A DNA stretch of 33,848 bases from an uncultured Nitrospiraceae bacterium. Lineage in GTDB: Bacteria > Nitrospirota > Thermodesulfovibrionia > Thermodesulfovibrionales > UBA1546. Positions 5,578 through 30,393 of this stretch are shown one piece after another. The translations under genes and the position numbers were made by a program. Every line of letters begins with the position of its first letter. Positions within the stretch are counted from its first letter, which is position 1. Below the pieces are notes generated by a model. It searched no databases. It was not told where the DNA came from and saw nothing but the letters and a program-made list of their open reading frames with translations. Location: contig CAZHHV010000005.1 of NCBI GenBank assembly GCA_964532335.1, forward strand, positions 1-33,848. Reading direction: 5' to 3'.

Positions 5578-6153
5578 TTAACTCCGTGGCGTCCAGACCT
5601 TTCCTTTGTCTATGATATGCTCCACCTGCCAGCCGCGCATGTGAAGCTCTCTTGAAATCCACCTCCTGTGGCACTTCCACGGGAATCGCTCGGCGCAGAT
5701 AATTACAGCATTATGCCCGACTATTGACATGTCATGCCGCACTTGCCTGCCCTCGAAGTCCTTAATCGGGGGATGCGGCATCCAGTCTTTGTTGCGCTGG
5801 ATTCCCGCTTTCGCGGGAATGACAAAAGGGGCAGGAATGACTGCCTTGCGGTCGGATTGCAAAGCAATCTGCTCCAGTTTATCAATCCCTTTTCTAAAAT
5901 CTTCCGTTTCAATATATGCCTCATAGCCTCCTTTCCTGAAACCGCCGAGTTCTTTGCCGAGAAAGATATAGCTTATGCCTTCTTTTTTCAGAAGGTTTTC
6001 AAGGTTCTCTTTCGTAAATACCGGCAGTTTGCTCTTTGGAAAGCTTCTGACATCAATAAGGGTTTTGATGTCATAGTTAAAAAGGATTTCTATGAAATCC
6101 TCCTCGCTTCTTCTGGATGTGCCGAGGGTGTAGACTTTTTTCATCTTTTTCAT
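5578..6153 (-). CDS. DUF488 family protein carrying a 37-codon in-frame repeat-element insertion
   Basis: DUF488-like N-terminus (YTLGTSRRSEEDFIEIL...LIDVRSFPKS) and C-terminal core (VIICAERFPWKCHRRWISREL...VEHI). The segment VIPAPFVIPAKAGIQRNKDWMPHPPIKDFEGRQVRHD is encoded by the repeat at 5731-5841. Confidence 0.8.
   Translation of the reverse strand: MKKMKKVYTLGTSRRSEEDFIEILFNYDIKTLIDVRSFPKSKLPVFTKENLENLLKKEGISYIFLGKELGGFRKGGYEAYIETEDFRKGIDKLEQIALQSDRKAVIPAPFVIPAKAGIQRNKDWMPHPPIKDFEGRQVRHDMSIVGHNAVIICAERFPWKCHRRWISRELHMRGWQVEHIIDKGKVWTPRS
5731..5841. repeat. 111-bp GTCAT...ATGAC structured element (MITE-like) inside the DUF488 CDS
   Basis: Minus-strand reading: gtcattcctgcccc / gtcattcccgcgaaagcgggaatcc (hairpin) / ggatgccgcatcc (hairpin) / gggcaggcaagtgcggcatgac. 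The units match those of the intergenic cluster at 8083-8192. The length is an exact multiple of 3. Confidence 0.75.
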
Positions 6154-6163
6154 CTGAGAATAT

Positions 6164-6568
6164 TTATACCCAAAATATATCCGCTAAATGTGCAATCTTT
6201 TTGAATTCAGGGTCTCCTGTAACTATCACAGCCTCCAGTTCTACGGCGGAGGCAAGAACAAAACAATCGGCATACGAGATGCTGTATTGCCCATTATACT
6301 CAGCTGCCTGAAATATCAGGCTGTTGGGCGCCGGTAAAATCGTAAAATTCAATCTTTCTATGTTTGCAAGCGCTTCTAATTTTTTCTGATCGCCGAACTC
6401 CCTTTTGGTTGAATATATTATCTCTCCAAGATTGATTGCATTGATATATTTTACGCTTTCTACCTTCTTTATATCTTCAAGAAGACGGCTTATCTTCTCA
6501 TAGCCTCTTTCTTTCTGAAAGAGCTTAAGCAGTGCATAACTATCAAATATATGAGCAGTTTTCTTCAT
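6164..6568 (-). CDS. vapC: PIN-domain toxin (VapC-like)
   Basis: 134 aa. N-terminal acidic residue in IFDSYALL and C-terminal VIVTGDPEF typical of PIN. ATGA overlap with the upstream AbrB-type gene. Confidence 0.75.
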   Translation of the reverse strand: MKKTAHIFDSYALLKLFQKERGYEKISRLLEDIKKVESVKYINAINLGEIIYSTKREFGDQKKLEALANIERLNFTILPAPNSLIFQAAEYNGQYSISYADCFVLASAVELEAVIVTGDPEFKKIAHLADIFWV

Positions 6569-6795
6569 TGTCTGAATTCACCTTTACGCTCTTTTAGAAG
6601 CCGCTCTGACAACGAAGGTTTGGGTGGCAAAATCCCGCAAGCTGCATTTACGGCGTCTTCGACAGGCGGGATGAGATAGATAATCCCTCCGTATTCCATA
6701 ATCTGGATTTTCACGCCCGGTTTTATGTGATATTTTTTTCTCATCTCAGCCGGTATAACAATCTGCCCTTTGGACAGAGTTTTAACAGTTGCCAT
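6565..6795 (-). CDS. vapB: AbrB/MazE/SpoVT-type antitoxin (VapB-like)
   Basis: 76 aa. TLSKGQIVIPAEMRKKYHIKPGVKIQI is a typical SpoVT-AbrB swapped-hairpin motif. Confidence 0.8.
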   Translation of the reverse strand: MATVKTLSKGQIVIPAEMRKKYHIKPGVKIQIMEYGGIIYLIPPVEDAVNAACGILPPKPSLSERLLKERKGEFRQ

Positions 6796-6903
6796 AATGT
6801 TTAACCTCCTAATAAAAAGTTTTACTATTTAATCTAAGTGTATAACCACATAAACCGTTTGTCAAGTATAGAAATTTTCCGTCCCTCTGTGATAAATTAG
6901 TAA

Positions 6904-6938
6904 ACCCCGTTAGAAAGGGCGGGGTTTTCTAACGGGGT
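6904..6938. repeat. Palindromic element ACCCCGTTAGAAA-N9-TTTCTAACGGGGT (intergenic copy)
   Basis: 13-bp perfect arms at 6904-6916 and 6926-6938, loop gggcggggt. The same arms recur at 8790-8820. Confidence 0.85.
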
Positions 6939-6989
6939 AAATCCAAAATAATCAACGGCCTACGGCTCGTAGAGAAAGGATTTTGATAG

Positions 6990-8012: not shown

Positions 8013-8082
8013 AGAACCCTGTAGCAAGACCGCAGGGTATCTTAAAATAGCGGCTCTATGTTTCATACACGAAACGAGTTTT

Positions 8083-8192
8083 GTCATTCCCGCTTGTCGG
8101 GAATCCTTCTCTTGTCATTCCGACTTGTTCGGAATCCTTCAGAAAGATTGCGGACAAGCCGCAATGACAAAATAGGGACAAGCCAGAATGAC
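8083..8192. repeat. 110-bp cluster of four roughly 24-bp hairpin units (two forward, two inverted), GTCAT...ATGAC element
   Basis: gtcattcccgcttgtcgggaatcc (8083-8106), gtcattccgacttgttcggaatcc (8114-8137), gattgcggacaagccgcaatgac (8146-8168, inverted), gggacaagccagaatgac (8175-8192, inverted). Lies between asd and the next gene. Confidence 0.85.
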
Positions 8193-8248
8193 AAGAATGA
8201 ATTTCATATTATTAAAACTCATAACTCTAAACCTTTAATCAATTCGCT

Positions 8249-10141
8249 ATGAACATCAAGCTTGCAACAGGAGAAAGCATACCCGCAGCAACAGGTGAAA
8301 ACATCCTCTCTGCGCTCAAAAAGAAGGGTATCTATCTTGTTTCCTCATGCGGCGGCAAAGGCACATGCGGAAAATGCCGCATAAAGATTCACGCCGGGAA
8401 ATACAGGACCTCCGCATCAGGCAAACTCTCTCAGGCTGACAAAGAGAAAGGCATTGTCCTTGCCTGCCAAACATTCCCTGAAAGTGACATCTCCGCAGAG
8501 ATACTTGAAGAGGCAAGGCTTGTTGTCGGAGACAGGATTGCCCTGTCAAAATCAAAAGACCTTTCAGAGCTTTTCAGGTCCTTTGACAAAGAGATAACAC
8601 CCATCGTAAAAAGGCTTAACATCAAACTTCCGCCTCCTACAATAGAGGATCACATAAGCGATCTTGAGCGCTTGAAAAGGGAGCTTGAGCTGAAAGGCAT
8701 CAAAGGCATGAGGTTCTCCCATACATTTGCATCATCAATGGCAGATGACCTTAGAAAACACAACTGGGAAATACATCTCGCCTATGTTGACCCCGTTAGA
8801 AAAGATTTTTCTAACGGGGTTGACGGCCCGGAGGCAATCTTTGTTACATCCGACAAGCAAACCGCAAGATACGGCATTGCAGTTGACATCGGAACAACAA
8901 CGATTGTCGTATATCTCATTGACCTTTCTGACGGAAAACTCGTTGATGTGGGTTCAACATACAATTCACAGATACGATACGGCGATGACGTCATCACAAG
9001 GATAGTCCATGCAACAGAGAGCGGCGGGCTTGAAGAATTAAGGGAAACTGTCACGGATGATATAAACAACATCACCGATACTATTATTGAAAAACATGGC
9101 ATAAATAAAGAGCACATAGAATGCGCTGTAATCTCAGGGAATACAACCATGTCTCATATCTTCTGGGGGCTTGATCCCGGGCATATCAGGGAAGAGCCGT
9201 ATATACCTACTGTAAATTCATTTCCGCTGTGGAAGGCAGGGACAGCAAGGCTTCACATAAATAAACAAGCTCCTGTTTATACTCTGCCGTGTGTTGCAAG
9301 TTATGTCGGAGGCGACATTGTCTCAGGAGTGCTTGCATCAAAGATGCACAGAAACCATGAGACAGCATTATTCATGGACATCGGCACAAACGGAGAGATT
9401 GCAATAGGCAACAATGAATGGCTTATGACAGCGGCATGTTCTGCGGGCCCCTGTTTTGAAGGAAGCGGGATAAAGCACGGAATGAGGGCCACCGAAGGCG
9501 CGATAGAGGCTGTAAAGATTGCGCCTGATACATTTGAGCCTTCCATCTCTGTTATCGGCAATACTGTGCCAATAGGCATATGCGGCTCAGGAATGATAGA
9601 CGCAATATCAGAGCTGTTTCTTTCTGGCGTCATAGACCGGAAAGGAAAATTTATCCGTGAAATAAAAACAGGCCGCATAAGAGAGGGAGATGAAGGCGCA
9701 GAATTTGTCCTCCACAAAGGGGCAAAAGATATTGTCCTTACAGAAGTTGACATTGAGAATATCATGAGGGCCAAGGCAGCGATTTATGCAGGGATATCGC
9801 TTCTTATAAAAGAAGTAGGGTTCACGCTGGACAGTATAGAGCGCATATATGTAGCAGGAGGGTTCGGCAACTATCTGAATGTTGACAGGGCTGTAATAAT
9901 CGGAATGCTCCCTGACATTCCAAAAGAAAAGTTCAGATTTTTAGGCAACACATCAGTTGCAGGGGCTTATCTGTGCCTGCTCTCAGAAAAACTCAGGAAA
10001 GAAGCAGAGGAGATTGCGCGGAAAATGACATACATGGAGCTTTCAGTCTCAAGGAATTTTATGGATGAATACATGTCGGCGCTTTTCCTGCCGCATACTG
10101 ATATAAGCCTTTTTCCGACAGTCGCAAAACTGCTTAAATAA
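8249..10141 (+). CDS. RACo-like corrinoid reductive activase ([2Fe-2S] ferredoxin domain plus ASKHA/DUF4445 ATPase)
   Basis: 630 aa. N-terminal plant-type ferredoxin motif SSCGGKGTCGKCRIKI...LACQT. ASKHA phosphate-1 motif GIAVDIGTTTIVVYL, and later FMDIGTNGEIA and CGSGMIDA. Confidence 0.75.
   Translation: MNIKLATGESIPAATGENILSALKKKGIYLVSSCGGKGTCGKCRIKIHAGKYRTSASGKLSQADKEKGIVLACQTFPESDISAEILEEARLVVGDRIALSKSKDLSELFRSFDKEITPIVKRLNIKLPPPTIEDHISDLERLKRELELKGIKGMRFSHTFASSMADDLRKHNWEIHLAYVDPVRKDFSNGVDGPEAIFVTSDKQTARYGIAVDIGTTTIVVYLIDLSDGKLVDVGSTYNSQIRYGDDVITRIVHATESGGLEELRETVTDDINNITDTIIEKHGINKEHIECAVISGNTTMSHIFWGLDPGHIREEPYIPTVNSFPLWKAGTARLHINKQAPVYTLPCVASYVGGDIVSGVLASKMHRNHETALFMDIGTNGEIAIGNNEWLMTAACSAGPCFEGSGIKHGMRATEGAIEAVKIAPDTFEPSISVIGNTVPIGICGSGMIDAISELFLSGVIDRKGKFIREIKTGRIREGDEGAEFVLHKGAKDIVLTEVDIENIMRAKAAIYAGISLLIKEVGFTLDSIERIYVAGGFGNYLNVDRAVIIGMLPDIPKEKFRFLGNTSVAGAYLCLLSEKLRKEAEEIARKMTYMELSVSRNFMDEYMSALFLPHTDISLFPTVAKLLK
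8790..8820. repeat. Perfect 14-bp-arm palindrome ACCCCGTTAGAAAA-gat-TTTTCTAACGGGGT inside the RACo-like CDS
   Basis: Arms at 8790-8803 and 8807-8820. Read in-frame as DPVRKDFSNGV. Same arm sequence as 6904-6938. Confidence 0.85.
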
Positions 10142-10154
10142 TTTATAATATACC

Positions 10155-10802
10155 ATGAAGCTTTTGATGCACATCTGCTGCGCAAACTGCAGTCTTTATC
10201 CCATCAAAACACTAACTGAAAAGGGCGTTTCCGTAACAGGACTGTGGTTTAATCCCAATATCCATCCTTATGTGGAATATAAAAATAGACTGGATGCAGT
10301 TAGAAAGCTTGAGTGCCTCTGGAAAAACGATAATAAAATCCCCCCTAACCCCCCTTTATTAAAGGGGGGCGAGGGGGGATTTTTGCAAAAGGGGGAGAGG
10401 GAAGGATTCTCGTGGGGAGGAGCAGATTTTCAAGTGCATTATATAGACTGCTACGGCATCAAGGAATTCATACAGAAGACAGGCAACGGCAGTGAGAACC
10501 GCTGCAGTGCGTGTTATGAAATGAGGCTTGACAAGACAGCCCAAACAGCCAGAGAGATCGGCGCTGACGGCTTTACAACCTCGCTCCTTATAAGCCCCTA
10601 CCAGAAATTTGATGTTATAATAGACATTGGCAGAGAAATGGAGAAAAGGCACTCTGTGCAATTTTATTTTGAAGACTTCAGACCCGGCTGGAAGCAGGGG
10701 GTTGAGCTTTCAAAGGAGCTCGGGCTTTACAGGCAGAAATATTGCGGCTGCATCTATTCCGAGATGGAGAAACACCTTAAAGTTCGGGAGGAAGTGAGAT
10801 GA
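10155..10802 (+). CDS. queH: Epoxyqueuosine reductase QueH (DUF208) with an in-frame palindromic-element insertion
   Basis: 215 aa. LMHICCANCS...GLWFNPNIHPY..EY..R and CSACYEMRLD...TTSLLISPYQ...YRQKYCGCIYSE are QueH hallmarks. IPPNPPLLKGGEGGFLQKGEREGFSWGG is encoded by the repeat. Confidence 0.9.
   Translation: MKLLMHICCANCSLYPIKTLTEKGVSVTGLWFNPNIHPYVEYKNRLDAVRKLECLWKNDNKIPPNPPLLKGGEGGFLQKGEREGFSWGGADFQVHYIDCYGIKEFIQKTGNGSENRCSACYEMRLDKTAQTAREIGADGFTTSLLISPYQKFDVIIDIGREMEKRHSVQFYFEDFRPGWKQGVELSKELGLYRQKYCGCIYSEMEKHLKVREEVR
10335..10383. repeat. Nested C6/G6 palindrome (family A), copy inside queH
   Basis: Outer arms aaaatcccccct (10335-10346) and aggggggatttt (10372-10383). Inner arms cccccctTTA (10349-10358) and TAAagggggg (10360-10369). 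Confidence 0.9.
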
Positions 10803-11824
10803 AAGCTTTCAGCAATAAGCGTTCAGCGTTCAGCTTAAAAACGTGTCTTATTTTATTTTCCCTGATAGCTATAAGCTGTCAGCTGTCAGCTGATTTATAC
10901 GCCGATGCAATAAGAGTGCTTATTTTGGATGAAGATTCTCCGCGTATCCCTGCAAAGAATGAGCCTCTGGAGAAAGTCAGTGAAAAGATAAAAGGCGACT
11001 TCCTTGTGAGCGGGGTTCATTACAGGGGCGAGATTGAGGTATGGAAAGGGAAAAACGGGCTTTATGTCGTAAATGAAATCCCCTTTGAGGAATATGTCAA
11101 GAGCGTTGTCACGGCTGAGGTCGGGACCAACTGGGAAATGGAAGCGCTCAAAGCTCAGGCAGTTATTTCAAGGACGTATGCTGTATATCAAAAAAATATG
11201 AACGGAAACCTGCATTACCATATTACATCCTCTGTTCTTCATCAGGTGTACAAGGGGAACTTCTCTGATGTCAGAGCAGCAACTGCCGTAGAAAAAACAT
11301 CAGGCGAGATACTCACATTCAACGGAAACCCAATAGAGGCGCTTTACCACTCTACATGCGGCGGCAAGACAGAGCTTCCCGAAGAGGTGTTTGAGAAAAG
11401 CTACCCCTATATTAAATCAGTGGAATCAAGCTGTGAAGCCTCGCCTTACTGGATATGGGAAAGAAAAATCCCATTGTCAGAGATAGAAAAATCTTTAAAC
11501 ATAACCGTCTTTAAAGATATGGCTGTCAGGTCTTACACCTCAACCGGAAGAGTAAAAGAGGTAACTGTAACATCTGAATCAGGAGAGCGCACAATCAAAT
11601 CCAACGACTTAAGAAAACAACTCGGATGGCAAAGACTGCCGAGCACAAATTTCACCATGACAAAACTAAACGATTCCATAATCTTCGAAGGAAAAGGCTA
11701 CGGCCATGGAGTAGGCCTCTGCCAGTGGAGCGCGCTTGAGATGGCAAAAAAGGGGAAAAACTACAGGGAAATTCTTTCTTTCTTTTATCCCGGAACAGAA
11801 ATTCAGTTATATGAAGGCCGCTGA
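10799..11824 (+). CDS. SpoIID/LytB domain protein
   Basis: 341 aa. ATGA overlap with the queH stop. Signal peptide, plus AQAVISRTYAV and LYHSTCGGKTE SpoIID motifs. Confidence 0.85.
   Translation: MKAFSNKRSAFSLKTCLILFSLIAISCQLSADLYADAIRVLILDEDSPRIPAKNEPLEKVSEKIKGDFLVSGVHYRGEIEVWKGKNGLYVVNEIPFEEYVKSVVTAEVGTNWEMEALKAQAVISRTYAVYQKNMNGNLHYHITSSVLHQVYKGNFSDVRAATAVEKTSGEILTFNGNPIEALYHSTCGGKTELPEEVFEKSYPYIKSVESSCEASPYWIWERKIPLSEIEKSLNITVFKDMAVRSYTSTGRVKEVTVTSESGERTIKSNDLRKQLGWQRLPSTNFTMTKLNDSIIFEGKGYGHGVGLCQWSALEMAKKGKNYREILSFFYPGTEIQLYEGR
10811..10894. repeat. Two heptamer tandem arrays (AGCNNTN x4 each) in the SpoIID signal-peptide coding region
   Basis: agcaata agcgttc agcgttc agcttaa (10811-10838) and agctata agctgtc agctgtc agctgat (10867-10894). 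Confidence 0.8.
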
Positions 11825-12830
11825 TTTTGATTTTCACCTGCCGGAAGGACTGATAGCAAAAAAACCTTCTGACAAAAGAGACCTCTCAAGGCTTTTAGTG
11901 CTTCACAAAAACGGCAAAATAGAACACAGAATCTTCGGTAATCTCCCCGACTATCTTAATGAAGGCGACCTGCTTTTACTTAATAGCACCAAAGTTTTTC
12001 CGGCAAGACTTACAGGGGCAAAGCCTACGGGAGGAAGATTTGAATTTCTGCTGGTAAAAGAAATCGGCGTTGACAAGTGGGAAATACTATCAAAAGGAAA
12101 ATACAGAGGGGAAATATCAATAGCAGAAGGGTTATCAGCAGACATAGAAAACCAGACTGCCCGGTTTTCGTATTCCGGCGACTTCATGGAAAATGTGTGG
12201 AGATACGGAGATATGCCTTTGCCGCCGTATATAAAGCGCAAGCCGGAGCCCGTTGATAGAGAATGGTATCAGACAGTATATGCGGAAAAAGAGGGTTCCA
12301 TCGCAGCTCCGACCGCCGGAATGCATTTTACCGGAGAACTGATAGGCAAGATAAAGGACAAAGGCGTGAATGTCAGGTGCCTGACACTTCATGTAGGGAT
12401 AGGGACCTTCAAACCGATAAAAGCAGAGAATTTGAGTGAACATTCTATGGATGCAGAATATTTTGAGATAGGGAAAGAGATTATTGAAGAGATAAAAAAA
12501 ACAAAAGCCTGCGGCAAAAGAGTCTTCTCTGTTGGAACCACAACAACGAGGGCTATAGAGGGATATATGAGCGGACAATATTCACCCATTCACCCATTCA
12601 CCCATTCACCCATTCACCGGATCTGCGGTTCTACAAACATCTTCATCTATCCCGGTTATGAGTTCAGGGTTGTTGACTCCCTTATCACCAATTTTCACCT
12701 TCCACGCTCAACACCGCTTATGCTGGCATCTGCCTTCTGCGGCGCCGAAAAACTGAGAGGCGCATACAGCATTGCTGTGAGTCAAAAATATAGATTTTTC
12801 TCCTACGGTGATGCTATGCTTATCCTGTGA
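11811..12830 (+). CDS. queA: S-adenosylmethionine:tRNA ribosyltransferase-isomerase
   Basis: I start at ATG 11811 (MKAADFDFHLPEGLIAKKP, the family-typical N-terminus) rather than the track start 11736. Also VGTTTTRAIE, IFIYPGYEFRVVDSLITNFHLPRSTPLMLASAF. Confidence 0.93.
   Translation: MKAADFDFHLPEGLIAKKPSDKRDLSRLLVLHKNGKIEHRIFGNLPDYLNEGDLLLLNSTKVFPARLTGAKPTGGRFEFLLVKEIGVDKWEILSKGKYRGEISIAEGLSADIENQTARFSYSGDFMENVWRYGDMPLPPYIKRKPEPVDREWYQTVYAEKEGSIAAPTAGMHFTGELIGKIKDKGVNVRCLTLHVGIGTFKPIKAENLSEHSMDAEYFEIGKEIIEEIKKTKACGKRVFSVGTTTTRAIEGYMSGQYSPIHPFTHSPIHRICGSTNIFIYPGYEFRVVDSLITNFHLPRSTPLMLASAFCGAEKLRGAYSIAVSQKYRFFSYGDAMLIL
12581..12618. repeat. 8-bp microsatellite (TTCACCCA) x4.75 inside queA
   Basis: Direct reading gives units at 12581, 12589, 12597 and 12605, then a partial ttcacc. 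Translated as SPIHPFTHSPIH. Confidence 0.95.
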
Positions 12831-12831
12831 A

Positions 12832-18353: not shown

Positions 18354-18363
18354 AGGAACTATT

Positions 18364-20153: not shown

Positions 20154-20203
20154 TTAAGAATGATACATTATTGGCTGCGGTTGTTTCAAATGGAGGGGTA
20201 TTC

Positions 20204-20551
20204 TTACTGCCTTAATCCCTTTAAAACATTATAAACCACCGCAAGCTCGCGTATTTCCATATCTTGCAGAGAAGAAGATATGGCGTCAATATACTCTTTC
20301 TTCTGTTTAGCCTCTTTTTTCCTGTCACGAAACAGAATTGTCCCCTTAAAATCAAAGAAATCTTTTGGATTTACACTGAGGGCTTTTGCCAGAGCTTCAA
20401 AGGTTTTAAATGACGGCTGCGACATGCCCCGCTCCAGCCTGCTTATATATTCAACGCTCAGCCCTGTCTTTTCAGCAAGCATTTCCTGCGTCAGTTTTGC
20501 GGCTTTTCTAATCTGCTTTATCCTCTTGCCCAACTGCTTGCCAAGGTCCAT
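20204..20551 (-). CDS. XRE-family helix-turn-helix transcriptional regulator
   Basis: 115 aa. LGKRIKQIRKAAKLTQEMLAEKTGLSVEYISRLERGMSQPSFKTFEALAKAL is a canonical Cro/C1 HTH. Confidence 0.85.
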   Translation of the reverse strand: MDLGKQLGKRIKQIRKAAKLTQEMLAEKTGLSVEYISRLERGMSQPSFKTFEALAKALSVNPKDFFDFKGTILFRDRKKEAKQKKEYIDAISSSLQDMEIRELAVVYNVLKGLRQ

Positions 20552-20634
20552 CGTGAGATACCTCTTTTTGATTGATAATATAGTGCATTCAGGGAGGATA
20601 ATAAGGGACTACTAATACGAATTTATATTTATTA

Positions 20635-20664
20635 TTGACATGATAGGTCTATATATGCTATAAA
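20635..20664 (+). promoter_or_regulatory. Sigma-70-like promoter for the TPR/beta-barrel gene
   Basis: TTGACA (20635-20640), an 18-nt spacer, then TATAAA (20659-20664). Downstream are a 7-bp-stem hairpin accgtta-aagaaa-taacggt (20673-20692) and a strong AGGAGG (20717-20722) 7 nt before ATG 20730. Confidence 0.4.
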
Positions 20665-20729
20665 CCAAACTGACCGTTAAAGAAATAACGGTAAATAAAG
20701 GTAGTCCCATATACACAGGAGGTCATCAT

Positions 20730-22250: not shown

Positions 22251-22264
22251 AGGAGGAAAGGAAA

Positions 22265-23431
22265 ATGATAGTAGCAATGTATCTTGCGTTCTCAGTTTTT
22301 AACCTACATGCAGAGTCATTGCCGCAGGTTCCTACAGACTTTATATTGCCGCTTCAAAGTAATGACAAAATATATTTAGTTACAGAGGCTGGAGGAAAAT
22401 CGCCAATCTATACTAAAGAGGAAGGATATTATGATTCTTTTCATGCTTCCGACAAAGCTTATTATTCATTAGATTTTGATGTGGGAAAAGGGGGCAAGGC
22501 AAATGTAGTTGCAGTTGACAGCGGGAAGGTTGTTGCTGTTGTCTATGAAGGGAAATACCAGCATATTACGGTAGACCATGGCAATGGATATCTTACAGAA
22601 TATGCTGAATTTGATATTGACAAAAAGTTTAAAGTGGGTGATAAGGTCGGGAAAGGTGATAAACTTGGAATTTTATCAGGTAAGCCAGTGGAACATCTAC
22701 ATTTTCAGGTTAAATATTCTGAGACAGGCGAACATGGAACAGGACTAAGCAAAAGAGATAACAGGGGACTTGAGGGTGTTAAAATAGCTGGAGTCCCTTT
22801 AACAGATTACAAACTAAAGGATAAAAATGGAGTTCCCCAAAGCACGGATGTTGTAGATGTATTAAAGTCAGCTAATATGTCATCAGCCGCCAAGCAAATA
22901 TCCTCTCAACAGATTAATTCGTCTGCTCAGATTGCGCTTCAGGATTTTGAAAAGATTACCAAGACTGCCCATACCACGCCTATGCAAGTTGTTAATCTCC
23001 TTCCCGACAAGGACAAAGTCGCTCAGCAGACACCTGATAAACTGACCAAGCAACTCCCAGACAATTATACAGTCCCTTTGAAAGGCACATTATTATGGAC
23101 ATCTTCCAATTCATCAAGTAAGCCAGTTGGACAAATCGACGATGCTGGTGGTGGTGGAACAATAACAAAAAATGGCAATAATATTACATTTTTCATTCCT
23201 AATACAGACCCTTCTAATAGAAAAGGCGATACTCTAACAGGTACTATTTCTGGGACTTCATTTTCCGTTACAGGCGGATTCCAATCAGATCCTTTAGATG
23301 GTTGCCCAACCTGTGCGGCTACCATCACTATGAATGGAAATATCTATATTAATGGAAAAATTATGAGTGGAACATACAAGAAAGTTGGGACGGGAGGGGA
23401 AGAGTCTTATACTGGAATTTTCATCAAATAA
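22265..23431 (+). CDS. Secreted M23/LytM-family metallopeptidase with a low-complexity linker and a Gly/Thr-rich C-terminal beta domain (candidate Slam cargo)
   Basis: ATG 22265 has AGGAGG 8 nt upstream. Alternatives are ATG 22244 and TTG 22238, which overlap the upstream stop. Signal peptide MIVAMYLAFSVFNLHA/ES. M23 core: VVAVDSGKVVAV, ITVDHGNGYLTEYAEF, VKVGDKVGKGDKLGIL, EHLHFQV. C-terminus: TLTGTISGTSFSVTGG...GKIMSGTYKKVGTGGEESYTGIFIK. Confidence 0.8.
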   Translation: MIVAMYLAFSVFNLHAESLPQVPTDFILPLQSNDKIYLVTEAGGKSPIYTKEEGYYDSFHASDKAYYSLDFDVGKGGKANVVAVDSGKVVAVVYEGKYQHITVDHGNGYLTEYAEFDIDKKFKVGDKVGKGDKLGILSGKPVEHLHFQVKYSETGEHGTGLSKRDNRGLEGVKIAGVPLTDYKLKDKNGVPQSTDVVDVLKSANMSSAAKQISSQQINSSAQIALQDFEKITKTAHTTPMQVVNLLPDKDKVAQQTPDKLTKQLPDNYTVPLKGTLLWTSSNSSSKPVGQIDDAGGGGTITKNGNNITFFIPNTDPSNRKGDTLTGTISGTSFSVTGGFQSDPLDGCPTCAATITMNGNIYINGKIMSGTYKKVGTGGEESYTGIFIK

Positions 23432-23671
23432 AAGAGGGGCAGATTTTCGGGGAAATAGAGATTATTAAGTAATGTGATGTAACAGGAATCTAACAGTAAT
23501 TCGGAGACTCAAGACGCCAATGCATGTTATCGGTCTCTTGCAGTCGTCCGAAAACTTTTTCTTCTCCTCTTGTGAATCAAATATCATATGCAATTTTAAG
23601 GGGACAGGTACATTTTATCCTGCGGACATGCGGTATCCAGCCTGGGATTTTTTAGGAGTCGGCGACAGGAT

Positions 23672-24082
23672 TTATGTTTTCCAGTTGTCTAACAGCAACC
23701 CCTCAATGCGGGAAAAGTGATTGGTGTTATTCGTAATGAGGACAAGGTTGTTTACGACTGCTATTGCAGCAACAAGGATATCGGCATCGGATATGATGTT
23801 CCCCTTCTCTTTAAGAGATGCATATATGTCGGCAGCTTTCACTATGGCATCATCAGTAATTGGAAGAACATTGTTGATAGCACAGAACCTGTTAAAAAGC
23901 TCAATCTGCTTTTCAGCCTTTTTTGCCTTCAATCCTTTAAGAATTTCATATTTCGTTATATGGGAGATGTTAAGGCAACTGTGGATGCTGATATATTCGG
24001 AAGCCTTTGCCAATACCTTGGAATTTTTCTTGAAAAGCTCTGAAAGAATATCCGTGTCAATAAGTGAAGGGGGATAAGCCAT
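23672..24082 (-). CDS. vapC: PIN-domain toxin (VapC-like)
   Basis: 136 aa. LIDTDILSEL, HITKYEIL, ISDADILVAAIAV, LITNNTNHF are the four PIN acidic-residue regions. Confidence 0.8.
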   Translation of the reverse strand: MAYPPSLIDTDILSELFKKNSKVLAKASEYISIHSCLNISHITKYEILKGLKAKKAEKQIELFNRFCAINNVLPITDDAIVKAADIYASLKEKGNIISDADILVAAIAVVNNLVLITNNTNHFSRIEGLLLDNWKT

Positions 24083-24085
24083 GTC

Positions 24086-24310
24086 TCAATGCCTTGAGAA
24101 GCCGCTTCTATCTAATGCCAGTTTTTCTATATCTTCTATGTCTTCAGGAGAAAGTCCGTTGTACACCATGGACAAGAGCGAAAGAATATCGGCAGATTTT
24201 ACCGGTTCATCTTCGATGGTGAGGGTTACCTTCTTATGTTCTGAGATATTGAGCGGAGAGACCGGTATCAAAACTCCCCTCTCAAATACTGCTTCTATTG
24301 TTTTAGGCAT
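24086..24310 (-). CDS. Small antitoxin, AF2212/DUF104-like (VapB-type partner)
   Basis: MPKTIEAVFERGVLIPVSPLNISEHKKVTLTIE is the typical N-terminal motif of this antitoxin family. ATG 24310 is preferred over 24331 because AAGGGGG lies about 10 nt upstream. Confidence 0.6.
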   Translation of the reverse strand: MPKTIEAVFERGVLIPVSPLNISEHKKVTLTIEDEPVKSADILSLLSMVYNGLSPEDIEDIEKLALDRSGFSRH

Positions 24311-24355
24311 TTTGATATTACCCCCTTTCAAATCGGGATGGCTAACCCATGACTA

Positions 24356-24384
24356 AATTTATCACACGCGCGGCTTTCTGTCAA
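24356..24384 (-). promoter_or_regulatory. Sigma-70-like promoter for the second vapBC operon
   Basis: On the minus strand: TTGACA (24384-24379), a 17-nt spacer, then TAAATT (24361-24356). Confidence 0.4.
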
Positions 24385-24448
24385 ATTTTAACACGCACAG
24401 GCCAAAGGAACTCCTGAATTTACTGTTGAGATGGAAGGCATAAATCTT

Positions 24449-25123
24449 TTATGGACTAAATTTTATGTAGTTCTCCCAGTAACCAAGCAGTTCCTTTGTC
24501 GCCTTAATATCTCCGAGGCAGTACCTTGCAATATCAAGATACCTTTTATCGGCAAAAAGGTTTTTAATATCATATCCTGTTATGCCGTCTTCTTTCGGGC
24601 TCTTTATGCCGAATGTCTTGCACCACATATCAAGGCTGAACCTGCGCCTTGATGCGCCGTAAAAAGTAAGCTGGTCAAGGAGGTCTATATGAGCGCCGTT
24701 ATACCTGTTGGGCATAAGGTCTTTTGTAGGCTTTATCTTATGAACAGCAGAGCGGATAAGAATGAACGGGCAGTCAAAGCCCCTTCCGTTGAATGTGATT
24801 ATCTCTCTATAGCTTTTAACCGTATTCCAGAATTTTTCAAGAATTTCTTTTTCTGTGCCTGTTTCAAATTTTATCCCGTTCTCTTCAAAAGGAGCGATTT
24901 GTGTTTCAGGCGACTGGAAATATACCGTCCCTTTGTCTGTATCAGGGTTAAGAATGCCTATGGTGATGACTTCGCCTGTTAAGGGATAGAATGAAAGGCT
25001 TTCCTTGACATCCTTGATATCATCGTCTGTCTCTGCCCAGCGAAGCAGGTATTCCTGCGTGCTCTTGTCAAGGGAATCAAAGTCTTTGCCGCTTGTCTCT
25101 ATGTCAAAAATGATTCTACTCAT
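24449..25123 (-). CDS. DEDD 3'-5' exonuclease, RNase H-like fold (PolB-exonuclease-related)
   Basis: 224 aa. Exo I IFDIETSG, Exo II ITFNGRGFDCPFI, Exo III HIDLLD...YCLGDIKAT. Confidence 0.75.
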   Translation of the reverse strand: MSRIIFDIETSGKDFDSLDKSTQEYLLRWAETDDDIKDVKESLSFYPLTGEVITIGILNPDTDKGTVYFQSPETQIAPFEENGIKFETGTEKEILEKFWNTVKSYREIITFNGRGFDCPFILIRSAVHKIKPTKDLMPNRYNGAHIDLLDQLTFYGASRRRFSLDMWCKTFGIKSPKEDGITGYDIKNLFADKRYLDIARYCLGDIKATKELLGYWENYIKFSP

Positions 25124-25133
25124 ACAGATATAG

Positions 25134-25228
25134 AACAGTAGAGCAACAGAACAGTAGAGCAGCAGGCTAATAAGGAAATATATAAATCCTTATTTCGAAG
25201 CTACTGGTCTACTGCGCTACTGCTCTAT
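25134..25228. repeat. Intergenic structured element: inverted octamer arrays flanking a central hairpin
   Basis: Left array aacagtag agcaacag aacagtag agcagcag (25134-25165). Centre aataagga-N10-tccttatt (25169-25194). Right array ctactggt ctactgcg ctactgct ctat (25201-25228), which is roughly the reverse complement of the left array. Confidence 0.8.
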
Positions 25229-25231
25229 TTT

Positions 25232-26560: not shown

Positions 26561-26614
26561 TGTCTCTTAAAACCTCTCCTTAAATCCTGCCTTCCCATTA
26601 CAGCCGCCAAAAAA

Positions 26615-27754
26615 CTATCTCTTCATTTTTAACCACTGCATGGGGTCCAGCGGTTTCCCTTTATATCTTACCTCAAAATACAGGCCCGGCGCATTCAGGG
26701 TTCCTGATTCCCCGACCTTGCCTATGGCCTGCCATTCTTTTATTATATCTCCAACTTTATAAAAAATCTCGGCTAAATTTGCGTATAGGGTATGATAGCC
26801 TTCCCCATGACTTATTATAACAAGCTTGCCGTAACCTTTGAACCAGTCGGCAAATACAACCTTGCCCCCGTGCACTACCTTTGCCAATGCATCGTCATCC
26901 GCTTTGATATGTATGCCGTTTCTGAATACCGGCGTGTTGAACTGAGGGTCTTTCTGCGCCCCGTACGGGATTACAACCTTCCCGTTGACAGGCCAGTCCA
27001 GCTTCCCCTTCAGATTGTGAAAGCCCTTTGCGGCATATGCCTCGGCTTCCTCAGAACGCCTTATTATCTCCATAAGCCTGTTGGAAGCCTCTTTTAATTC
27101 CTTCAACATATTCTCGTAAGAAGATTTTTCCTTTCTTACAGAGGACAGAAGCATTTCTTTGCCTTTTTTCTTTTCTGCGATTGCCTTCTCGTTTGCCTGT
27201 ATCTTTTCCTCGCTTTTTTTTAGTTCGGCGTGCAGCGTCTTTAAGCGGCTTTCCTGCTCTGCAAGATTTTTTATGGTCTCTTTATAGCTGTTCAGCATCT
27301 TATGGTCGTACCCTGCCATCTCTTTAATATACCTCCACCTTCTCATCAACTGAGCTATGTCCTCCGAAGTTGAAAGCAGAATCACAACATCGCCTGAATA
27401 CCCATATTTCTGCATAACGCGAAGTTTCCTCTTAAGCCACTCCGCCTGCCTTTCGAGTTTTGCCCTGTTTACCGATATGTCTGCCTCAACCTTGCGTATC
27501 TCATTTTCCGTAACCTTTCGCTTTCCAATGTATTTTCTTAACTCCGCCTGAGTCTGGCTGAGGTCCTTATTCGTCCTGTCAAGTTCTTCAAGTACCGAAT
27601 GCTCCATCTTCTTGGCTTTCTCAAGTTTTTCCTTGTGGGTATCTATTTCTTTTTGAAGCTTCTTGTATTCTTCCTTGGGATCTTTGGCAGCAAAAGCAAT
27701 ATCGGTAAATAGTGAACAGTGAATTGTGAATAGTAAGATTAATACAAGACGCAT
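26615..27754 (-). CDS. envC: EnvC-like murein hydrolase activator (coiled coil plus degenerate LytM domain)
   Basis: I prefer ATG 27754 (MRLVLILLFTIHCSLFTDIAFA/AKDP signal peptide). The track start 27856 would add 34 repeat-encoded residues. Long coiled coil. The LytM domain lacks the zinc ligands (GIHIKA, GLYFEVRY replace HxxxD and HLHFE). Sits in ftsEX context. Confidence 0.75.
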   Translation of the reverse strand: MRLVLILLFTIHCSLFTDIAFAAKDPKEEYKKLQKEIDTHKEKLEKAKKMEHSVLEELDRTNKDLSQTQAELRKYIGKRKVTENEIRKVEADISVNRAKLERQAEWLKRKLRVMQKYGYSGDVVILLSTSEDIAQLMRRWRYIKEMAGYDHKMLNSYKETIKNLAEQESRLKTLHAELKKSEEKIQANEKAIAEKKKGKEMLLSSVRKEKSSYENMLKELKEASNRLMEIIRRSEEAEAYAAKGFHNLKGKLDWPVNGKVVIPYGAQKDPQFNTPVFRNGIHIKADDDALAKVVHGGKVVFADWFKGYGKLVIISHGEGYHTLYANLAEIFYKVGDIIKEWQAIGKVGESGTLNAPGLYFEVRYKGKPLDPMQWLKMKR

Positions 27755-27857
27755 GATGTACGATGCATGATGCCTGATACCCCCCTTTAATTCCCCCCTT
27801 GCTAAGGGGGGATAGAGGGGGGGTATATCCTGTATCTTGTATCCTGTATCCTGCATC
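27751..27857. repeat. Composite element: family A nested C6/G6 palindrome flanked by inverted heptamer arrays (ftsX-envC junction)
   Basis: gcatgat gtacgat gcatgat gcctgat (27751-27778). Outer arms atacccccc (27777-27785) and ggggggtat (27818-27826). Inner arms tcccccctt-gct-aagggggga (27792-27812). atcctgt atcttgt atcctgt atcctgc (27827-27854). A further array agtgaac agtgaat tgtgaat lies at 27711-27731. Confidence 0.85.
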
Positions 27858-27862
27858 TTTTT

Positions 27863-28741
27863 TCAGGAGAATCTTATTCTTCCCAGCGCAATTACAGCGC
27901 CTCCTATGCCTAACAGCAATCCGGCAATAGGAAGGGCAGGGAAAGTTTCAAGGGGGAATACAAGGATTTTCAGTATTGGGATGGTAGCGGTAACCTTATA
28001 AAACAGCACATAGTAAAATGCGAACGCGGCTGCCATGCTTGCAATCCCGCCGAACATCCCGAGCACGCTCCCCTCTATAACAAAAGGCGCCCGTATGAAT
28101 CCCCTTGTTGCGCCAAGAAGTTTAAATGTTTCTATCTCTTCTTTTCTCCTGTAAAACGCAATCTTTATGGTGCTGTAACATACAAAAATCACTCCTGCCG
28201 ACATTATGATAATAAGAGATAAGCTGCCTGCCTTTGCCATTCCTTTGATAGAGTGGATGGAATTAAGGAATTGTTCGCCGTACTCCACCTCTGCAATGCC
28301 TTTTACTTTTTTAATCTCTGCGGCGAATTTCTTAACGCTTGCGATATTGACAGATTCTTTCTTAAGCTTAATCTCAATTGATGCGGGGAGAGGGTTTTCG
28401 TCAATGCCCTCAAGAATATAATCTGCATTCTTTAAAACGCCCTTTAATTCCTCCAGCGCCTTATCCTTTGCTATATATCTTGCCTGTTCAACGGCATTAT
28501 TCTTTTTCAGTTGTGCAATTATGCTTCGTGTTTCCTGCTCTGACAGCCCGTCAGCCAGGTAAAGCATTACTGAGAATCTTGCCGGAAGTCTTTTTGTTGC
28601 AAGGTCTATGTTATAAACAACAAAAAATGTGAGTGTGATCATAAACAGCCCTGCCGCGATTGTCAGCACTGAGAGGAGATTTATCCACTTTTCACGCCAT
28701 AAGCTTTGGAGGGCAAGTCTGAACGAATATAAAAGATACAT
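27863..28741 (-). CDS. ftsX: Cell division permease-like protein FtsX
   Basis: 292 aa, four TM segments with a large periplasmic loop. LGATRGFIRAPFVIEG motif. 1-nt overlap with the ftsE stop. Confidence 0.85.
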   Translation of the reverse strand: MYLLYSFRLALQSLWREKWINLLSVLTIAAGLFMITLTFFVVYNIDLATKRLPARFSVMLYLADGLSEQETRSIIAQLKKNNAVEQARYIAKDKALEELKGVLKNADYILEGIDENPLPASIEIKLKKESVNIASVKKFAAEIKKVKGIAEVEYGEQFLNSIHSIKGMAKAGSLSLIIIMSAGVIFVCYSTIKIAFYRRKEEIETFKLLGATRGFIRAPFVIEGSVLGMFGGIASMAAAFAFYYVLFYKVTATIPILKILVFPLETFPALPIAGLLLGIGGAVIALGRIRFS

Positions 28742-29403
28742 TATCCTATCTCCTCTCCGACCATATTGCCGTTGTCAATCCTGAACACTCTCCGCCCTGT
28801 ATTCCTGTAAAGTTCCCTGTTATGTGTAGCGATAACAACTGTAGTTCCCCTTGCGTTAATATCTTTAAACAAGCGCGTAATTCCTGCCGCAGTGTCAGGG
28901 TCAACGTTGCCTGTCGGCTCATCGGCAAGAAGGATTGTCGGCTCTCCGACTATTGCGCGCGCAATAACTACTCTCTGCTGTTCACCGCCTGAAAGCGCCC
29001 GCGGAAAACTGTCCGCCTTATGCCTTAAATTCACCATCTTCAGTATTTCCATCACCCAATCCTGTATCTCGCTGTCCAGCATGCCTCGTATGCGCAAGGC
29101 TATGGCAACATTGTCAAAGACATCCCTGTTGTCAAGAAGCCGGAAGTCCTGAAAGACAACACCTATATTCCGTCTTAAAAACGGGATGCTTGATTCCTTA
29201 AGCTTGCTCAGATCCCATTCTGCTACGGTTACGCTGCCCTCATCAGGTTTTTCTGAAAGGTATATAATCTTAAGGAGTGTGGATTTCCCGGCGCCGCTCG
29301 GCCCTGTCATAAAAACCATTTCGCCTTTTTCTATGGAGAAGGTTATGTTCTTAAGAGCCGCCTGCTTTTCATAAAACTTAGTGACATTGGAAAAATGTAT
29401 CAT
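28741..29403 (-). CDS. ftsE: Cell division ATP-binding protein FtsE
   Basis: 220 aa. Walker A GPSGAGKST, signature LSGGEQQRV, Walker B ILLADEPTGNVD. Confidence 0.93.
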   Translation of the reverse strand: MIHFSNVTKFYEKQAALKNITFSIEKGEMVFMTGPSGAGKSTLLKIIYLSEKPDEGSVTVAEWDLSKLKESSIPFLRRNIGVVFQDFRLLDNRDVFDNVAIALRIRGMLDSEIQDWVMEILKMVNLRHKADSFPRALSGGEQQRVVIARAIVGEPTILLADEPTGNVDPDTAAGITRLFKDINARGTTVVIATHNRELYRNTGRRVFRIDNGNMVGEEIG

Positions 29404-29406
29404 AAT

Positions 29407-30393
29407 TTATCTCTTCAATCCTTCTTTCACGGTCCTGACTATATCTTCTGCTGTCAACCCGTATAATTTCATCAGTTCATCAGAAGGCCCTGAACAGCCA
29501 AAGGTGTCCTTAATCCCGATTCTTTTTACAGGCACCGGATAATTCTCAGCGAGGAATTCACACACCGCTCCGCCGAGCCCACCTATAACAGAATGCTCCT
29601 CTGCCGTTATAATGAGTTTTGAATTTTTGGCAGCCCTTAAAAGGGTCTCACCATCGAGAGGTTTTATTGTAGACATATTGATTACTCCGGCATCAATTCC
29701 CTCTTTTTTCAGCATCTCCATTGCATCAAGCGAAGCAGAAACCATTATGCCTGCTGCGATTATATTTGCATCTTTTCCTACATGGAATTTATACGCCTTG
29801 CCTATTGTGAATTTATAGTCATCAGGCATAACCACAGGCACCTTGGACCTCCCAAGCCTGACATAAACAGGCCCGTAAAAATCAGCTATTGCCTCAATGA
29901 CCTGTTTTGTCTCTATGCCGTCTGCAGGCACAATCACGGTCATGTTAGGAAGGACCCTCATGAGTGTGATGTCTTCTATGGCCTGATGCGATGCGCCGTC
30001 CTCGGCAACGGTAATCCCGCTGTGAGTTGCAACGAGTTTCACATTCAGGCTTGAATAAGAGATTGTCTGCCTTATCTGCTCCCACGCCCTGCCTGTCTCA
30101 AAAACAGCGAATGTAGAAGCAAAAGGCAGCTTGCCTGTAAGCGAAAGGCCGCCCGCTGTGCCGATCAAATCCTGCTCTGAAATTCCAATATTAAAAAATC
30201 TCTCGGGGAAACCCTTTGCAAATTTTGCTGTCTTTGTGGAACCTGAGAGGTCTGCGTCAAGAACGACAACCTCTTTCCTTTTTTTGCCAAGTTCAAGAAG
30301 CGCATCTCCGTATGCATCCCTTGTAGCTATATTTTGAGTTTTAATTGGTGACTGCTGATCGCTGATTGCTGATTGCTGTTCCCTACTTCCCAT
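29407..30393 (-). CDS. Transketolase, C-terminal (pyrimidine-binding) subunit
   Basis: ATRDAYGDALLELG, VLDADLSGSTKT, FNIGISEQDLIG. Start taken at ATG 30393 (11-nt overlap with the N-terminal subunit) instead of the track start 30471. Confidence 0.9.
   Translation of the reverse strand: MGSREQQSAISDQQSPIKTQNIATRDAYGDALLELGKKRKEVVVLDADLSGSTKTAKFAKGFPERFFNIGISEQDLIGTAGGLSLTGKLPFASTFAVFETGRAWEQIRQTISYSSLNVKLVATHSGITVAEDGASHQAIEDITLMRVLPNMTVIVPADGIETKQVIEAIADFYGPVYVRLGRSKVPVVMPDDYKFTIGKAYKFHVGKDANIIAAGIMVSASLDAMEMLKKEGIDAGVINMSTIKPLDGETLLRAAKNSKLIITAEEHSVIGGLGGAVCEFLAENYPVPVKRIGIKDTFGCSGPSDELMKLYGLTAEDIVRTVKEGLKR
30347..30381. repeat. Heptamer tandem array (GCTGATY-like x5) at the tktN/tktC junction
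   Basis: ggtgact gctgatc gctgatt gctgatt gctgttc. Translated on the minus strand as EQQSAISDQQSP in the first codons of the C-terminal subunit. Confidence 0.85.

Follow-up and report, generated by a model that had tools for sequence, protein, structure and literature searches.

Four classes of miniature hairpin and tandem repeats, probably mobile or expanding under a selective filter, in conserved genes and spacers of Thermodesulfovibrionia

A 33,848-nucleotide stretch of DNA from an uncultured Nitrospiraceae bacterium of the Thermodesulfovibrionia (contig CAZHHV010000005.1 of assembly GCA_964532335.1; hereafter the window, meaning the whole stretch) carries small repeats at 13 sites in and between housekeeping genes. 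These repeats probably belong to several co-resident families that do not form one system but fall into four classes: a MITE (miniature inverted-repeat transposable element), hairpins with GTCAT ends that resemble the NTS or CGTC-tagged repetitive extragenic palindromic (REP) class, nested palindromes built of C-runs and G-runs (C/G palindromes), and heptamer or octamer arrays. The families appear to be mobile or expanding in Thermodesulfovibrionia, with selection then filtering the copies. The MITE leaves a 4-bp target signature, sites differ by presence and absence among related genomes, elements nest in one another, copy numbers change and copies within genes show a filter on reading frame.

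The window was compared with 80 related loci, one per species, all from Nitrospirota/Thermodesulfovibrionia metagenome-assembled genomes (MAGs), which were obtained by scanning species-representative genomes with HisF and which sample ~20 kb per genome. The closest is L003 (Nitrospirae bacterium CG1_02_44_142), followed by L004 (GWF2_44_13) and then four others; these six loci, L003–L008, with 83–96% nucleotide identity to the window, form the syntenic comparison set. Arrays and units were counted in 1.19 Mb comprising the window and the 80 related loci (81 genomes), while enzymes were searched for in 1.9 Mb that included metagenome loci. A metagenome scan for the MITE returned at least 127 copies, on contigs L083–L202, and the fractions given for it below are among the copies listed.

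A preliminary description of the window had reported structured repeats at 13 positions. All 13 are present, far beyond chance, and eight of them (5731, 6904, 8083, 8790, 10335, 16876, 25134 and 27751) fold as DNA with z-scores of -3.2 to -7.1 relative to shuffled sequences. Site 16121 gave z -2.55 and site 30347 gave z -3.1 with just -3.4 kcal/mol, whereas 12581 (dG 0), 10811 (z -1.5) and 19066 (z -1.4) are not significantly structured. Six sites lie inside conserved genes, four at N-termini and three (6904, 8083 and 25134) in intergenic spacers. Pfam matches confirm the five internal hosts already named (DUF488, RACo-like, QueH, YbeY and HisF) and QueA (12580-12618) is a sixth; all six are open through their inserts in the host frame, as had been said of the five. 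SpoIID, Tmk (thymidylate kinase), the M23 peptidase and the transketolase C-terminal subunit carry elements at their starts; three cases at gene starts had been counted before. The elements are as follows.

5728-5852, minus strand: inverted doublet of NTS/CGTC-REP-like type within DUF488 (gene 5578-6153, minus strand); z -3.8
5797-5824, minus strand: canonical NTS-like unit TGTCATTCCCGCGAAAGCGGGAATCCAG within the DUF488 doublet
6905-6937 (site 6901-6941): MITE copy 1, CCCCGTTAGAAA-GGGCGGGGT-TTTCTAACGGGG, intergenic between the PIN gene and asd, with a TAAA target duplication; z -5.6
8079-8204: cluster of nested NTS-like hairpins, GTCATTCC...GGAATGAC, with two units in each orientation (four in all), intergenic between asd and the RACo-like gene; z -5.7
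8791-8819 (site 8787-8823): MITE copy 2, 29 nt, in the RACo-like gene (8249-10141), with a TTGA target duplication; z -7.1
10329-10436 (palindrome 10335-10384): C6/G6 nested palindrome with two degenerate G-arm remnants, inside QueH (10155-10802); z -5.4
10811-10892, plus strand: AGCGTTC and AGCTGTC heptamer arrays around a T-rich core, coding for the N-terminal signal peptide of SpoIID, aa 5-32
12580-12618, plus strand: tandem octamer array ATTCACCC x4.9, coding in frame for 13 aa of a variable QueA loop (gene 11736-12830)
16117-16188, plus strand: heptamer-arm hairpin (AGCGTTR... / AACGCAC...), in frame in YbeY (15908-16393), aa 72-93
16872-16945: palindrome module of the C5/G5-6 type enclosing two hairpins, read in frame as aa 160-184 of HisF (16393-17292); z -3.2
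19062-19134: nested C5/G6-8 palindrome whose loop is enlarged, read in frame as aa 7-28 of thymidylate kinase (gene 18364-19149, minus strand), within its N-terminal extension
25128-25230: hairpin with 8-mer arms (AGAACAGT/AGAGCAAC ... CTACTGCT), intergenic between the exonuclease gene and ctpA; z -5.7
27708-27734 (site 27708-27862): AATAGTG x3.9 array, coding for the signal-peptide core of the M23 peptidase
27745-27862: composite hairpin with heptamer arms (GCATGAT and TATCCTG) and, in its apical loop, a nested C6/G6-7 palindrome, between ftsX and the M23 peptidase gene; z -5.0
30344-30378, minus strand: ATTGCTG x5 heptamer array, coding for aa 6-17 (QQSAISDQQSPI) of the transketolase C-terminal subunit

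The hairpin bounded by CCCCGTTAGAAA and TTTCTAACGGGG is a true miniature MITE. Both window copies and at least 127 metagenomic copies end in these perfect 12-bp terminal inverted repeats; scanned copies measure 27–54 nt, longer variants with the same ends reach ~140 nt, sub-families of 40 and 53 nt recur, and the smallest copies are essentially the inverted repeats plus a loop of 3–5 nt. An exact 4-bp target duplication is found at 82 of the 127 copies listed (chance ~0.4% per copy). The duplicated sequence has the form YWWR, with T or C at position 1 and A or G at position 4, and is mostly TAAA/TTTA, a preference that presumably resembles that of IS5-type targets. The family is similar to bacterial MITEs such as Correia/NEMIS, Nezha and RUP (PMC10969869; PMC2229807) in its inverted repeats, target duplication, lack of coding capacity, many dispersed copies, sub-families, and filled and empty sites, but is extremely small compared with the 70–300 nt of typical MITEs. 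Pairs of its inverted repeats spaced 0.9–2.2 kb apart in the 1.9 Mb, considered as candidate full-length insertion sequences, proved to be separate short copies, and no transposase-sized open reading frame (ORF) enclosed by the inverted repeats was found in these sequences. Literature on the inverted-repeat sequence yielded nothing relevant, the papers containing it being unrelated eukaryotic and probiotic work. Copies extend beyond the window, with the MITE in metagenomes and all classes in the 80 Thermodesulfovibrionia species. The MITE-bearing contigs, which have 43.5% GC, hold 26 exact period-7 arrays in 0.7 Mb and 21 NTS-like units, an abundance indicating that the repeat classes travel together in the environment.

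Comparison with relatives revealed filled, empty and replaced sites. BLAST alignments of the window to L003–L008 are interrupted exactly at the repeat sites, and the polymorphism between filled and empty sites that the preliminary description had named as a check on mobility was found at RACo, QueH, 6904, DUF488 and the core of the M23 site. The MITE site in the RACo-like gene is cleanly empty in all five relatives compared, and that at 6904 is empty in L003, L004 and L006 and holds a degenerate copy in L008; the empty MITE sites retain one copy of the duplicated 4-mer. The QueH site spans 121 nt in the window compared to 19 nt in five relatives, and the DUF488 insert, which codes for ...VIPAKAGIQ..., adds 47 aa relative to L008 (141 nt by BLAST coordinates). 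At the M23 site, L008 has the same heptamer hairpin as the window with the C/G core missing. The transketolase array is absent from L007 and L008, in both of which the Tmk site is also 45 nt shorter; L005 and L006 have NTS-like doublets at the Tmk site instead.

For YbeY, QueA, the N-terminus of SpoIID and two intergenic spacers, the repeat found at the corresponding position in relatives is mostly another one. The YbeY site measures 12 nt in L020, whereas in the window and nine further relatives (ten loci) differing elements bring it to 48–99 nt; each of these lengths is a multiple of 3. Heptamer-arm elements of 126–159 nt occupy the QueA loop in relatives and all differ by multiples of 3, and the heptamer arms at the SpoIID N-terminus differ from those of the window in every relative. 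Heptamer arrays or other hairpins stand in the asd|RACo spacer of relatives (8079-8204 in the window), and other heptamer-arm hairpins in their exonuclease|CtpA spacer, where length differences are not multiples of 3. Taken over all these comparisons, length differences within genes are always multiples of three, whereas the two intergenic spacers show only two that are. Some elements are shared between particular loci, namely L004/L007/L008 at QueA, L003/L007 at SpoIID and the window and L011 at YbeY. The HisF loop has a length divisible by 3 in all 80 species, with a basal state of 24–27 nt, and contains C/G palindromes in ~15, heptamer arrays in ~9 and GTCAT doublets in two (L021 and L023).

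The placement of the repeats relative to genes reflects tolerance and a frame filter. Coding sequence is depleted of every class measured compared with random positions, which runs contrary to the strong tendency to sit in frame in genes that had been proposed earlier; no enrichment was seen. Long open frames hold 24% of MITE copies versus 74% of random positions, 54% of the 7- and 8-mer arrays versus 82.5%, and 22% (14 of 63) of NTS-like units. The length of the MITE plus its duplication is divisible by 3 in 26 of 28 in-ORF copies but in only 39 of 90 copies outside ORFs, an excess that indicates a selective (survivorship) filter. The unusual point is the number of copies that are tolerated in genes.

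Within the host proteins, the repeat-coded residues fall at positions compatible with the fold. In the alignment of HisF to solved sequences, query residues 135–182 fall between residues 134 and 135 of 4evz, and in an AlphaFold2 model (pLDDT 79.7, pTM 0.82) residues 162–182 adopt a coil with pLDDT <50 on an otherwise confident barrel, so the repeat-coded insert is modelled as a disordered loop. Alignments of YbeY, QueA and QueH to solved structures gap or break at the insert. The earlier placement of the inserts in loops therefore holds for HisF by the model, while for YbeY, QueA and QueH it is consistent with the alignment gaps and breaks. The RACo-like insertion is a net 33 nt (11 codons, PVRKDFSNGVD) in an inter-domain linker, and the QueH element adds 102 nt (34 aa, ...IPPNPPLLKGGEGGF...) and splits the Pfam match to QueH. 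Directly upstream of the repeat-coded loop of HisF, aa 135-160 (window 16795-16870) form a conserved lineage-specific insert of ~26–28 aa, which solved HisF structures lack and for which the model gives two short helices. HisF matches of ~1,200 nt in six loci had the appearance of a second large insert and were traced to an upstream hisA paralogue joined by tblastn.

The preliminary description had likened the repeats to Rickettsia palindromic elements (RPEs) and to cyanobacterial STRR (short tandemly repeated repetitive) sequences, and both comparisons are apt. RPEs were reportedly described by Ogata in 2000 as in-frame selfish DNA in protein-coding genes. The elements found here are similar to RPEs (reviewed in PMC10969869) in being in-frame palindromic repeats of unrelated housekeeping enzymes, at fold-compatible positions and polymorphic between relatives. 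They differ in size (29–125 nt compared to ~100–150 nt), in comprising several classes, tandem heptamers included, and in their host, a free-living anaerobe in contrast to the obligate intracellular Rickettsia. Their density is also higher, with six internal and about four N-terminal cases in 34 kb versus 44 in the R. conorii genome.

The C/G palindromes share a consensus of ~50 nt across species and genes, AAAATC6-N3-C6TTT-N3-AAAG6-N3-G6ATTTT, and nest in hairpin loops and in themselves (window 27745-27862; L036). In-ORF cores are spread over the three frames (8, 7 and 6 cases), and the peptides are always of the PP..L/F.KGG..GG type (PPxPPLxKGGxGG); outside HisF about 50% of the cores, counted by hand, lie in long open frames. 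A metagenomic ComEC-like protein, P0123 (699 aa), contains three separate C/G-coded peptides, SPHSPLVKGGKGGL, IPPHPPLSKGGSGGI and SFSKGGMGGF, indicating that the class invades further conserved membrane proteins. An exhaustive search of representatives with the 45-aa QueH insert peptide, which has little power, gave seven matches of which two are genuine (P0123 and P0126), and a word-indexed protein search with the same peptide returned no candidates. No published description of C/G palindromes was found in the literature. According to the summary in PMC3116915, the cyanobacterial small dispersed repeats (SDR) of Elhai 2008 are dispersed hairpin-like repeats of ~21–27 nt that nest and have no known enzyme; the C/G palindromes are likewise very small, dispersed, hairpin-like and nested in one another and in other repeats, but by that description they are longer (~50 nt), consist of C- and G-runs and are often coding, and the sequences are seemingly unrelated. 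At its edge (33838-33848) the window reads ...CACCCCCCTT, which is possibly the left arm of a further C-run palindrome cut by the window edge. As to the suggestion that the repeats generate spurious hypothetical proteins, five antisense ORFs over repeats are absent from a collection of 15 billion proteins, which does not bear it out, although this is a weak test.

The tandem arrays are dominated by period 7. In the 1.19 Mb, 38 exact arrays have period 7, 10 have period 8 and 9 have period 6, with 0–1 for other periods, whereas shuffled sequence gave none at periods of 6 or more; Tandem Repeats Finder agrees on period 7 (138 of 571 arrays). Of 28 pairs of array arms, 18 reach a complementarity of at least 5/7, compared with 16% in a re-paired control. 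The unit sequences are very diverse and include GATRCAR, ATCRTGC, CAGTGAA, CGTGAAA, CACCCAT and AGCGTTC. The family GATRCAR...A7...ATCRTGC is present at four sites in L004, at four in L007 and at two or three in L008 and L011, and its recurrence at several sites per genome suggests copying between sites rather than independent slippage. Cyanobacterial STRR, reportedly described by Mazel in 1990, are tandem heptanucleotide repeats. Their units are CCCCAGT, TTGGTCA and CAACAGT, which differ from those of the arrays here, and the likeness is accordingly one of behaviour and not of family membership. Further precedents are the tandem TAACTGA heptanucleotides of Beggiatoaceae (PMC4679880) and heptanucleotide elements of Geobacter metallireducens (PMC2700814). 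The arrays share with all of these the period of 7, 2–9 units, positions between and within genes, occasional hairpins and variable copy number. Unlike them, they frequently form two partly complementary arms, lie routinely in frame in essential enzymes and signal peptides, and swap unit families at the same codon position between close relatives.

The GTCAT hairpins belong to a class that is already known. The window unit at 5797-5824 (minus strand), TGTCATTCCCGCGAAAGCGGGAATCCAG, fits the NTS (Neisseria Transformation Sequence) consensus CGTCATTCCCGCGMAVGCGGGAATCYRG with one mismatch, at the first base, and one mismatch is allowed by the authors of the consensus. It also fits the published Ssn-related motif (SRM), HGTCWYN(0-2)YYVSBRHN(0-5)WNVSBRGN(0-2)RNCYNB, a degenerate pattern that is weakly enriched across all loci (15 matches versus 2–7 in shuffles). 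Its layout, ATTCCCGC, GAAA, GCGGGAAT and CCAG, corresponds to a stem of 8 bp beginning with AT, a loop of 4 nt and the tail CCAG, and the units at 8083 and 8114 are close variants. Such units form a doublet (5728-5852), nested doublets (8079-8204) and the same doublets in HisF of L021 and L023, and 63 units of the form GTCATTSS...SSAAT occur in the 1.19 Mb, ~6 of them in the window. The CGTC-tagged REP superfamily covers Neisseria dRS3/NTS and Rickettsia RPE-4 and RPE-6, and is tied to Ssn GIY-YIG nucleases acting on single-stranded DNA (ssDNA) (PMC11893778; PMC3733652); members have been reported within ORFs, and five phyla were listed for them in Di Nocera 2013, Nitrospirota not being among these (PMC3733652). 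The window units agree with this superfamily (Di Nocera 2013, PMC3733652; Chenal 2025, PMC11893778), whose hairpins combine an AT-initiated stem of 8–9 bp with a loop of 4–5 nt, in consensus, stem, loop, CCA-type tail, and inverted dimers and clusters, and window copies likewise lie in frame in ORFs, with IPAKAGIQ in the coded peptide. Because sequence, layout and dimers all match, only the phylum is new for this class; also unlike known CGTC-tagged REPs, the window units have insertion sites in common with three unrelated repeat classes. No ssnA-type GIY-YIG (cd10448) gene was found in the window or the Thermodesulfovibrionia loci by motif search and tblastn, at ~20 kb per genome. The sole GIY-YIG ORF found by these means, in metagenome locus L164, lies between tRNA-like sequences, is unrelated and is not Ssn.

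These observations suggest a mechanism in which elements would land or expand anywhere and purifying selection would purge the copies that break genes. For the MITE, cleavage with a 4-bp stagger at YWWR sites (TAAA in most cases) implies that a DDE-type transposase acts in trans, while the NTS class might be mobilised or processed in trans by the Ssn GIY-YIG ssDNA nuclease or a related enzyme. C/G palindromes would nest in apical loops, both their own and those of other hairpins, with arms gained or lost, and heptamer and octamer arrays would change in copy number by slippage and may be copied ectopically or by gene conversion between sites. The survivors would be copies with a length divisible by three and no stop codons that lie in spacers between genes, at N-termini, in signal peptides or in disordered loops at the protein surface; C/G palindromes would be especially tolerated because they code for Pro/Gly-rich linkers in every frame and in both orientations. 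Permissive positions could then be reused and overwritten by different families across related species, giving rise to hypervariable loops in conserved enzymes. An uncharacterised non-autonomous repeat system had been envisaged for the lineage; the repeats are indeed dispersed and non-autonomous within the window, but they comprise four classes with differing signatures, of which the GTCAT class is already characterised.

Several points weigh against this interpretation. Neither the C/G palindromes nor the heptamer-arm hairpins show a target duplication or clean insertion boundaries, so for these two classes mobility rests on dispersal and polymorphism only, and the C/G sites in QueH and HisF look like replacements and not like simple insertions. 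The 60 nearest HisF homologue clusters (276–334 aa) mostly have IPPxPPLxKGGxGGLW at the loop, with nested or duplicated elaborations, which argues that this insert is old and largely inherited vertically, and the persistence of an intact palindrome in HisF could reflect selection on DNA, RNA or peptide. The in-ORF count of C/G cores is inflated because the loci were chosen through HisF, and the coding and non-coding calls throughout rest on crude open-frame criteria. Finally, while the window was correctly said to encode no transposase, the search for a mobilising enzyme (Ssn, a REP-associated tyrosine transposase (RAYT) or a transposase with matching inverted repeats) found none in the window or the 1.9 Mb of loci; this is weak evidence, since only ~20 kb per genome was sampled.

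A more specific process may be considered in Thermodesulfovibrionia, although we regard it as doubtful, in which unrelated miniature repeats, the C/G palindromes among them, prefer to insert into the apical loops of existing hairpins, or gene-convert them, and thereby overwrite one another in hypervariable cassettes. If this were true, codon positions of HisF, YbeY, QueA, QueH and Tmk, together with signal peptides, would turn over faster than their flanks diverge, and the process would represent a new mobilisation mechanism and a natural source of disordered loops and N-terminal peptides in free-living bacteria.

It is similarly unlikely, at about one chance in a handful, that the arrays and C/G palindromes are immobile and arise by in-place slippage and hairpin-templated duplication, their similarity being due to convergence or gene conversion. 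Such an origin would accord with the variation in array copy number among orthologous copies, with the difference of one 9-nt G-arm between the window and L003, with the lack of a target duplication in both classes, with the diversity of array units and with the report, as cited in PMC4679880, that heptanucleotide repeats are the commonest long simple repeats in prokaryotes. It does not readily explain why one two-arm unit family with an A-rich loop stands at unrelated sites, four each in L004 and L007, and also across species, why the 50-nt C/G consensus recurs in genes and species whose HisF is just ~73–80% identical to that of the window, or how a C/G core can be present or absent in an otherwise orthologous hairpin.

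Functional maintenance, either as mRNA hairpins (stabilisers, terminators or translational coupling) or as useful linkers and signal peptides, appears improbable as the explanation. Many elements lie at cistron junctions (asd|RACo, exonuclease|ctpA, ftsX|M23, tktN|tktC and holB-like|tmk), the hairpins are very stable, arrays coincide with the signal peptides of SpoIID, the M23 peptidase and a large ORF, and the PPxPPLxKGG loop of HisF is kept in most near relatives. However, the sequence and class at a given site are wholly different among relatives with 85–93% identical flanks, some sites are empty, coding occurs in each of the three frames, the model shows the HisF insert as disordered and no Rfam match was obtained. 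Function and selfish spread are nevertheless compatible with each other.

Still less probable is a unified system in which a single lineage-specific hairpin enzyme, RAYT-like or other, mobilises all four classes. The classes co-occur in the same genomes and in MITE-carrying metagenome contigs, occupy identical sites in different relatives and nest in one another's loops, but the 4-bp target duplication is seen in the MITE only, the classes share neither termini nor architecture (CCCCGTTAGAAA, (T/C)GTCATTCC, AAAATCCCCCC and arbitrary heptamers), and the NTS class, unaltered in sequence, is found in distant phyla not known to harbour the other classes (PMC11893778; PMC3733652). Common sites can be accounted for by a limited number of permissive positions. 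The repeats are similar to REPIN/RAYT systems (PMC3116915) in that hairpins occur as inverted doublets and are presumed to be mobilised in trans by a single-copy enzyme, but no GTAG tag was present on any element and no RAYT (IS200/IS605 Y1 transposase) gene in the window. An artefact of assembly or binning, in which repeats produce chimeric joins in MAGs, can practically be dismissed: although most comparison sequences are MAG contigs and repeats are classic assembler breakpoints, the window YbeY protein, insert included, is encoded identically on independent contigs of two sequencing runs, which shows that the inserts are no assembly artefact, the same architecture occurs in more than 120 metagenome contigs as well as in 80 species whose assemblies are independent, and every in-gene insert keeps the reading frame.

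The window is 93% coding. Its housekeeping genes include asd, the RACo-like activase gene, queH, spoIID, queA, phoH, ybeY, hisF, tmk, ftsEX, an envC-like M23 peptidase gene, ctpA and a split transketolase, together with several toxin-antitoxin genes, and a large Cys-rich surface-protein ORF occupies positions 1-4611. Scans of the window for tRNAs and against Rfam gave no match. The signal-peptide cores of three exported proteins are coded by or embedded in short tandem arrays: GTCAGT x3 in the Cys-rich ORF (4523-4540), heptamer arms in SpoIID (10811-10892) and AATAGTG x3.9 in the M23 peptidase (27708-27734). The composite hairpin at 27745-27862 is probably 5'-untranslated, upstream of the true M23 start (MRLVLILLF), and the transketolase C-terminal subunit likely starts at the ATG at 30393, with GGAGG just before it.

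A HepT-like toxin gene with an adjacent small ORF (4760-5562), probably a HepT/MNT pair, and a PIN toxin gene (6164-6568) flank the repeat-bearing DUF488 gene, and the HepT-like, PIN and DUF488 genes make up a small accessory cluster adjoining the conserved block. A 4.3-kb low-GC island (20196-24458) contains an XRE-type helix-turn-helix gene and genes for a TPR protein, an M23-like protein and a PIN toxin, as well as a small ORF. Its slot between the holB-like and exonuclease genes measures 42–74 nt in L005 and L007, with a heptamer array at this position in L005, and ~500 nt with another small gene in L008. The nearest relative among L003–L008 shifts from gene to gene over 5578-31240 (PIN, 99% to L004; FtsX, 98% to L007; 5' QueA, only 80% to L003), indicating a recombination mosaic. 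Some of the switches fall at repeat sites (YbeY and QueA), recalling the proposed link between NTS repeats and recombination, and the mosaic gives no more than a hint that recombination breakpoints are linked to repeat sites.

Nothing was found in the literature on these repeats in Nitrospirota or Thermodesulfovibrionia. New here are the lineage, the density, the fact that unrelated classes occupy identical codon positions, a MITE of extremely small size and the C/G palindromes, for which no description was found. In-frame selfish palindromes have so far been a curiosity mainly of Rickettsia and a few other bacteria; in this lineage, known almost solely from metagenomes, they are locally denser, fall into several classes and occur in free-living anaerobes. 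The GTCAT hairpins connect the lineage to the recently described NTS/Ssn ssDNA-nuclease system, which provides a testable candidate for repeat processing. Annotators should expect split domain matches, inflated protein lengths, misplaced start codons and assembly breaks at the repeat sites. The related MAGs represent natural filled, empty and replaced alleles at identical codon positions, and these alleles offer material both for estimating rates of repeat turnover and for studying how proteins tolerate or recruit repeat-coded loops and signal peptides.

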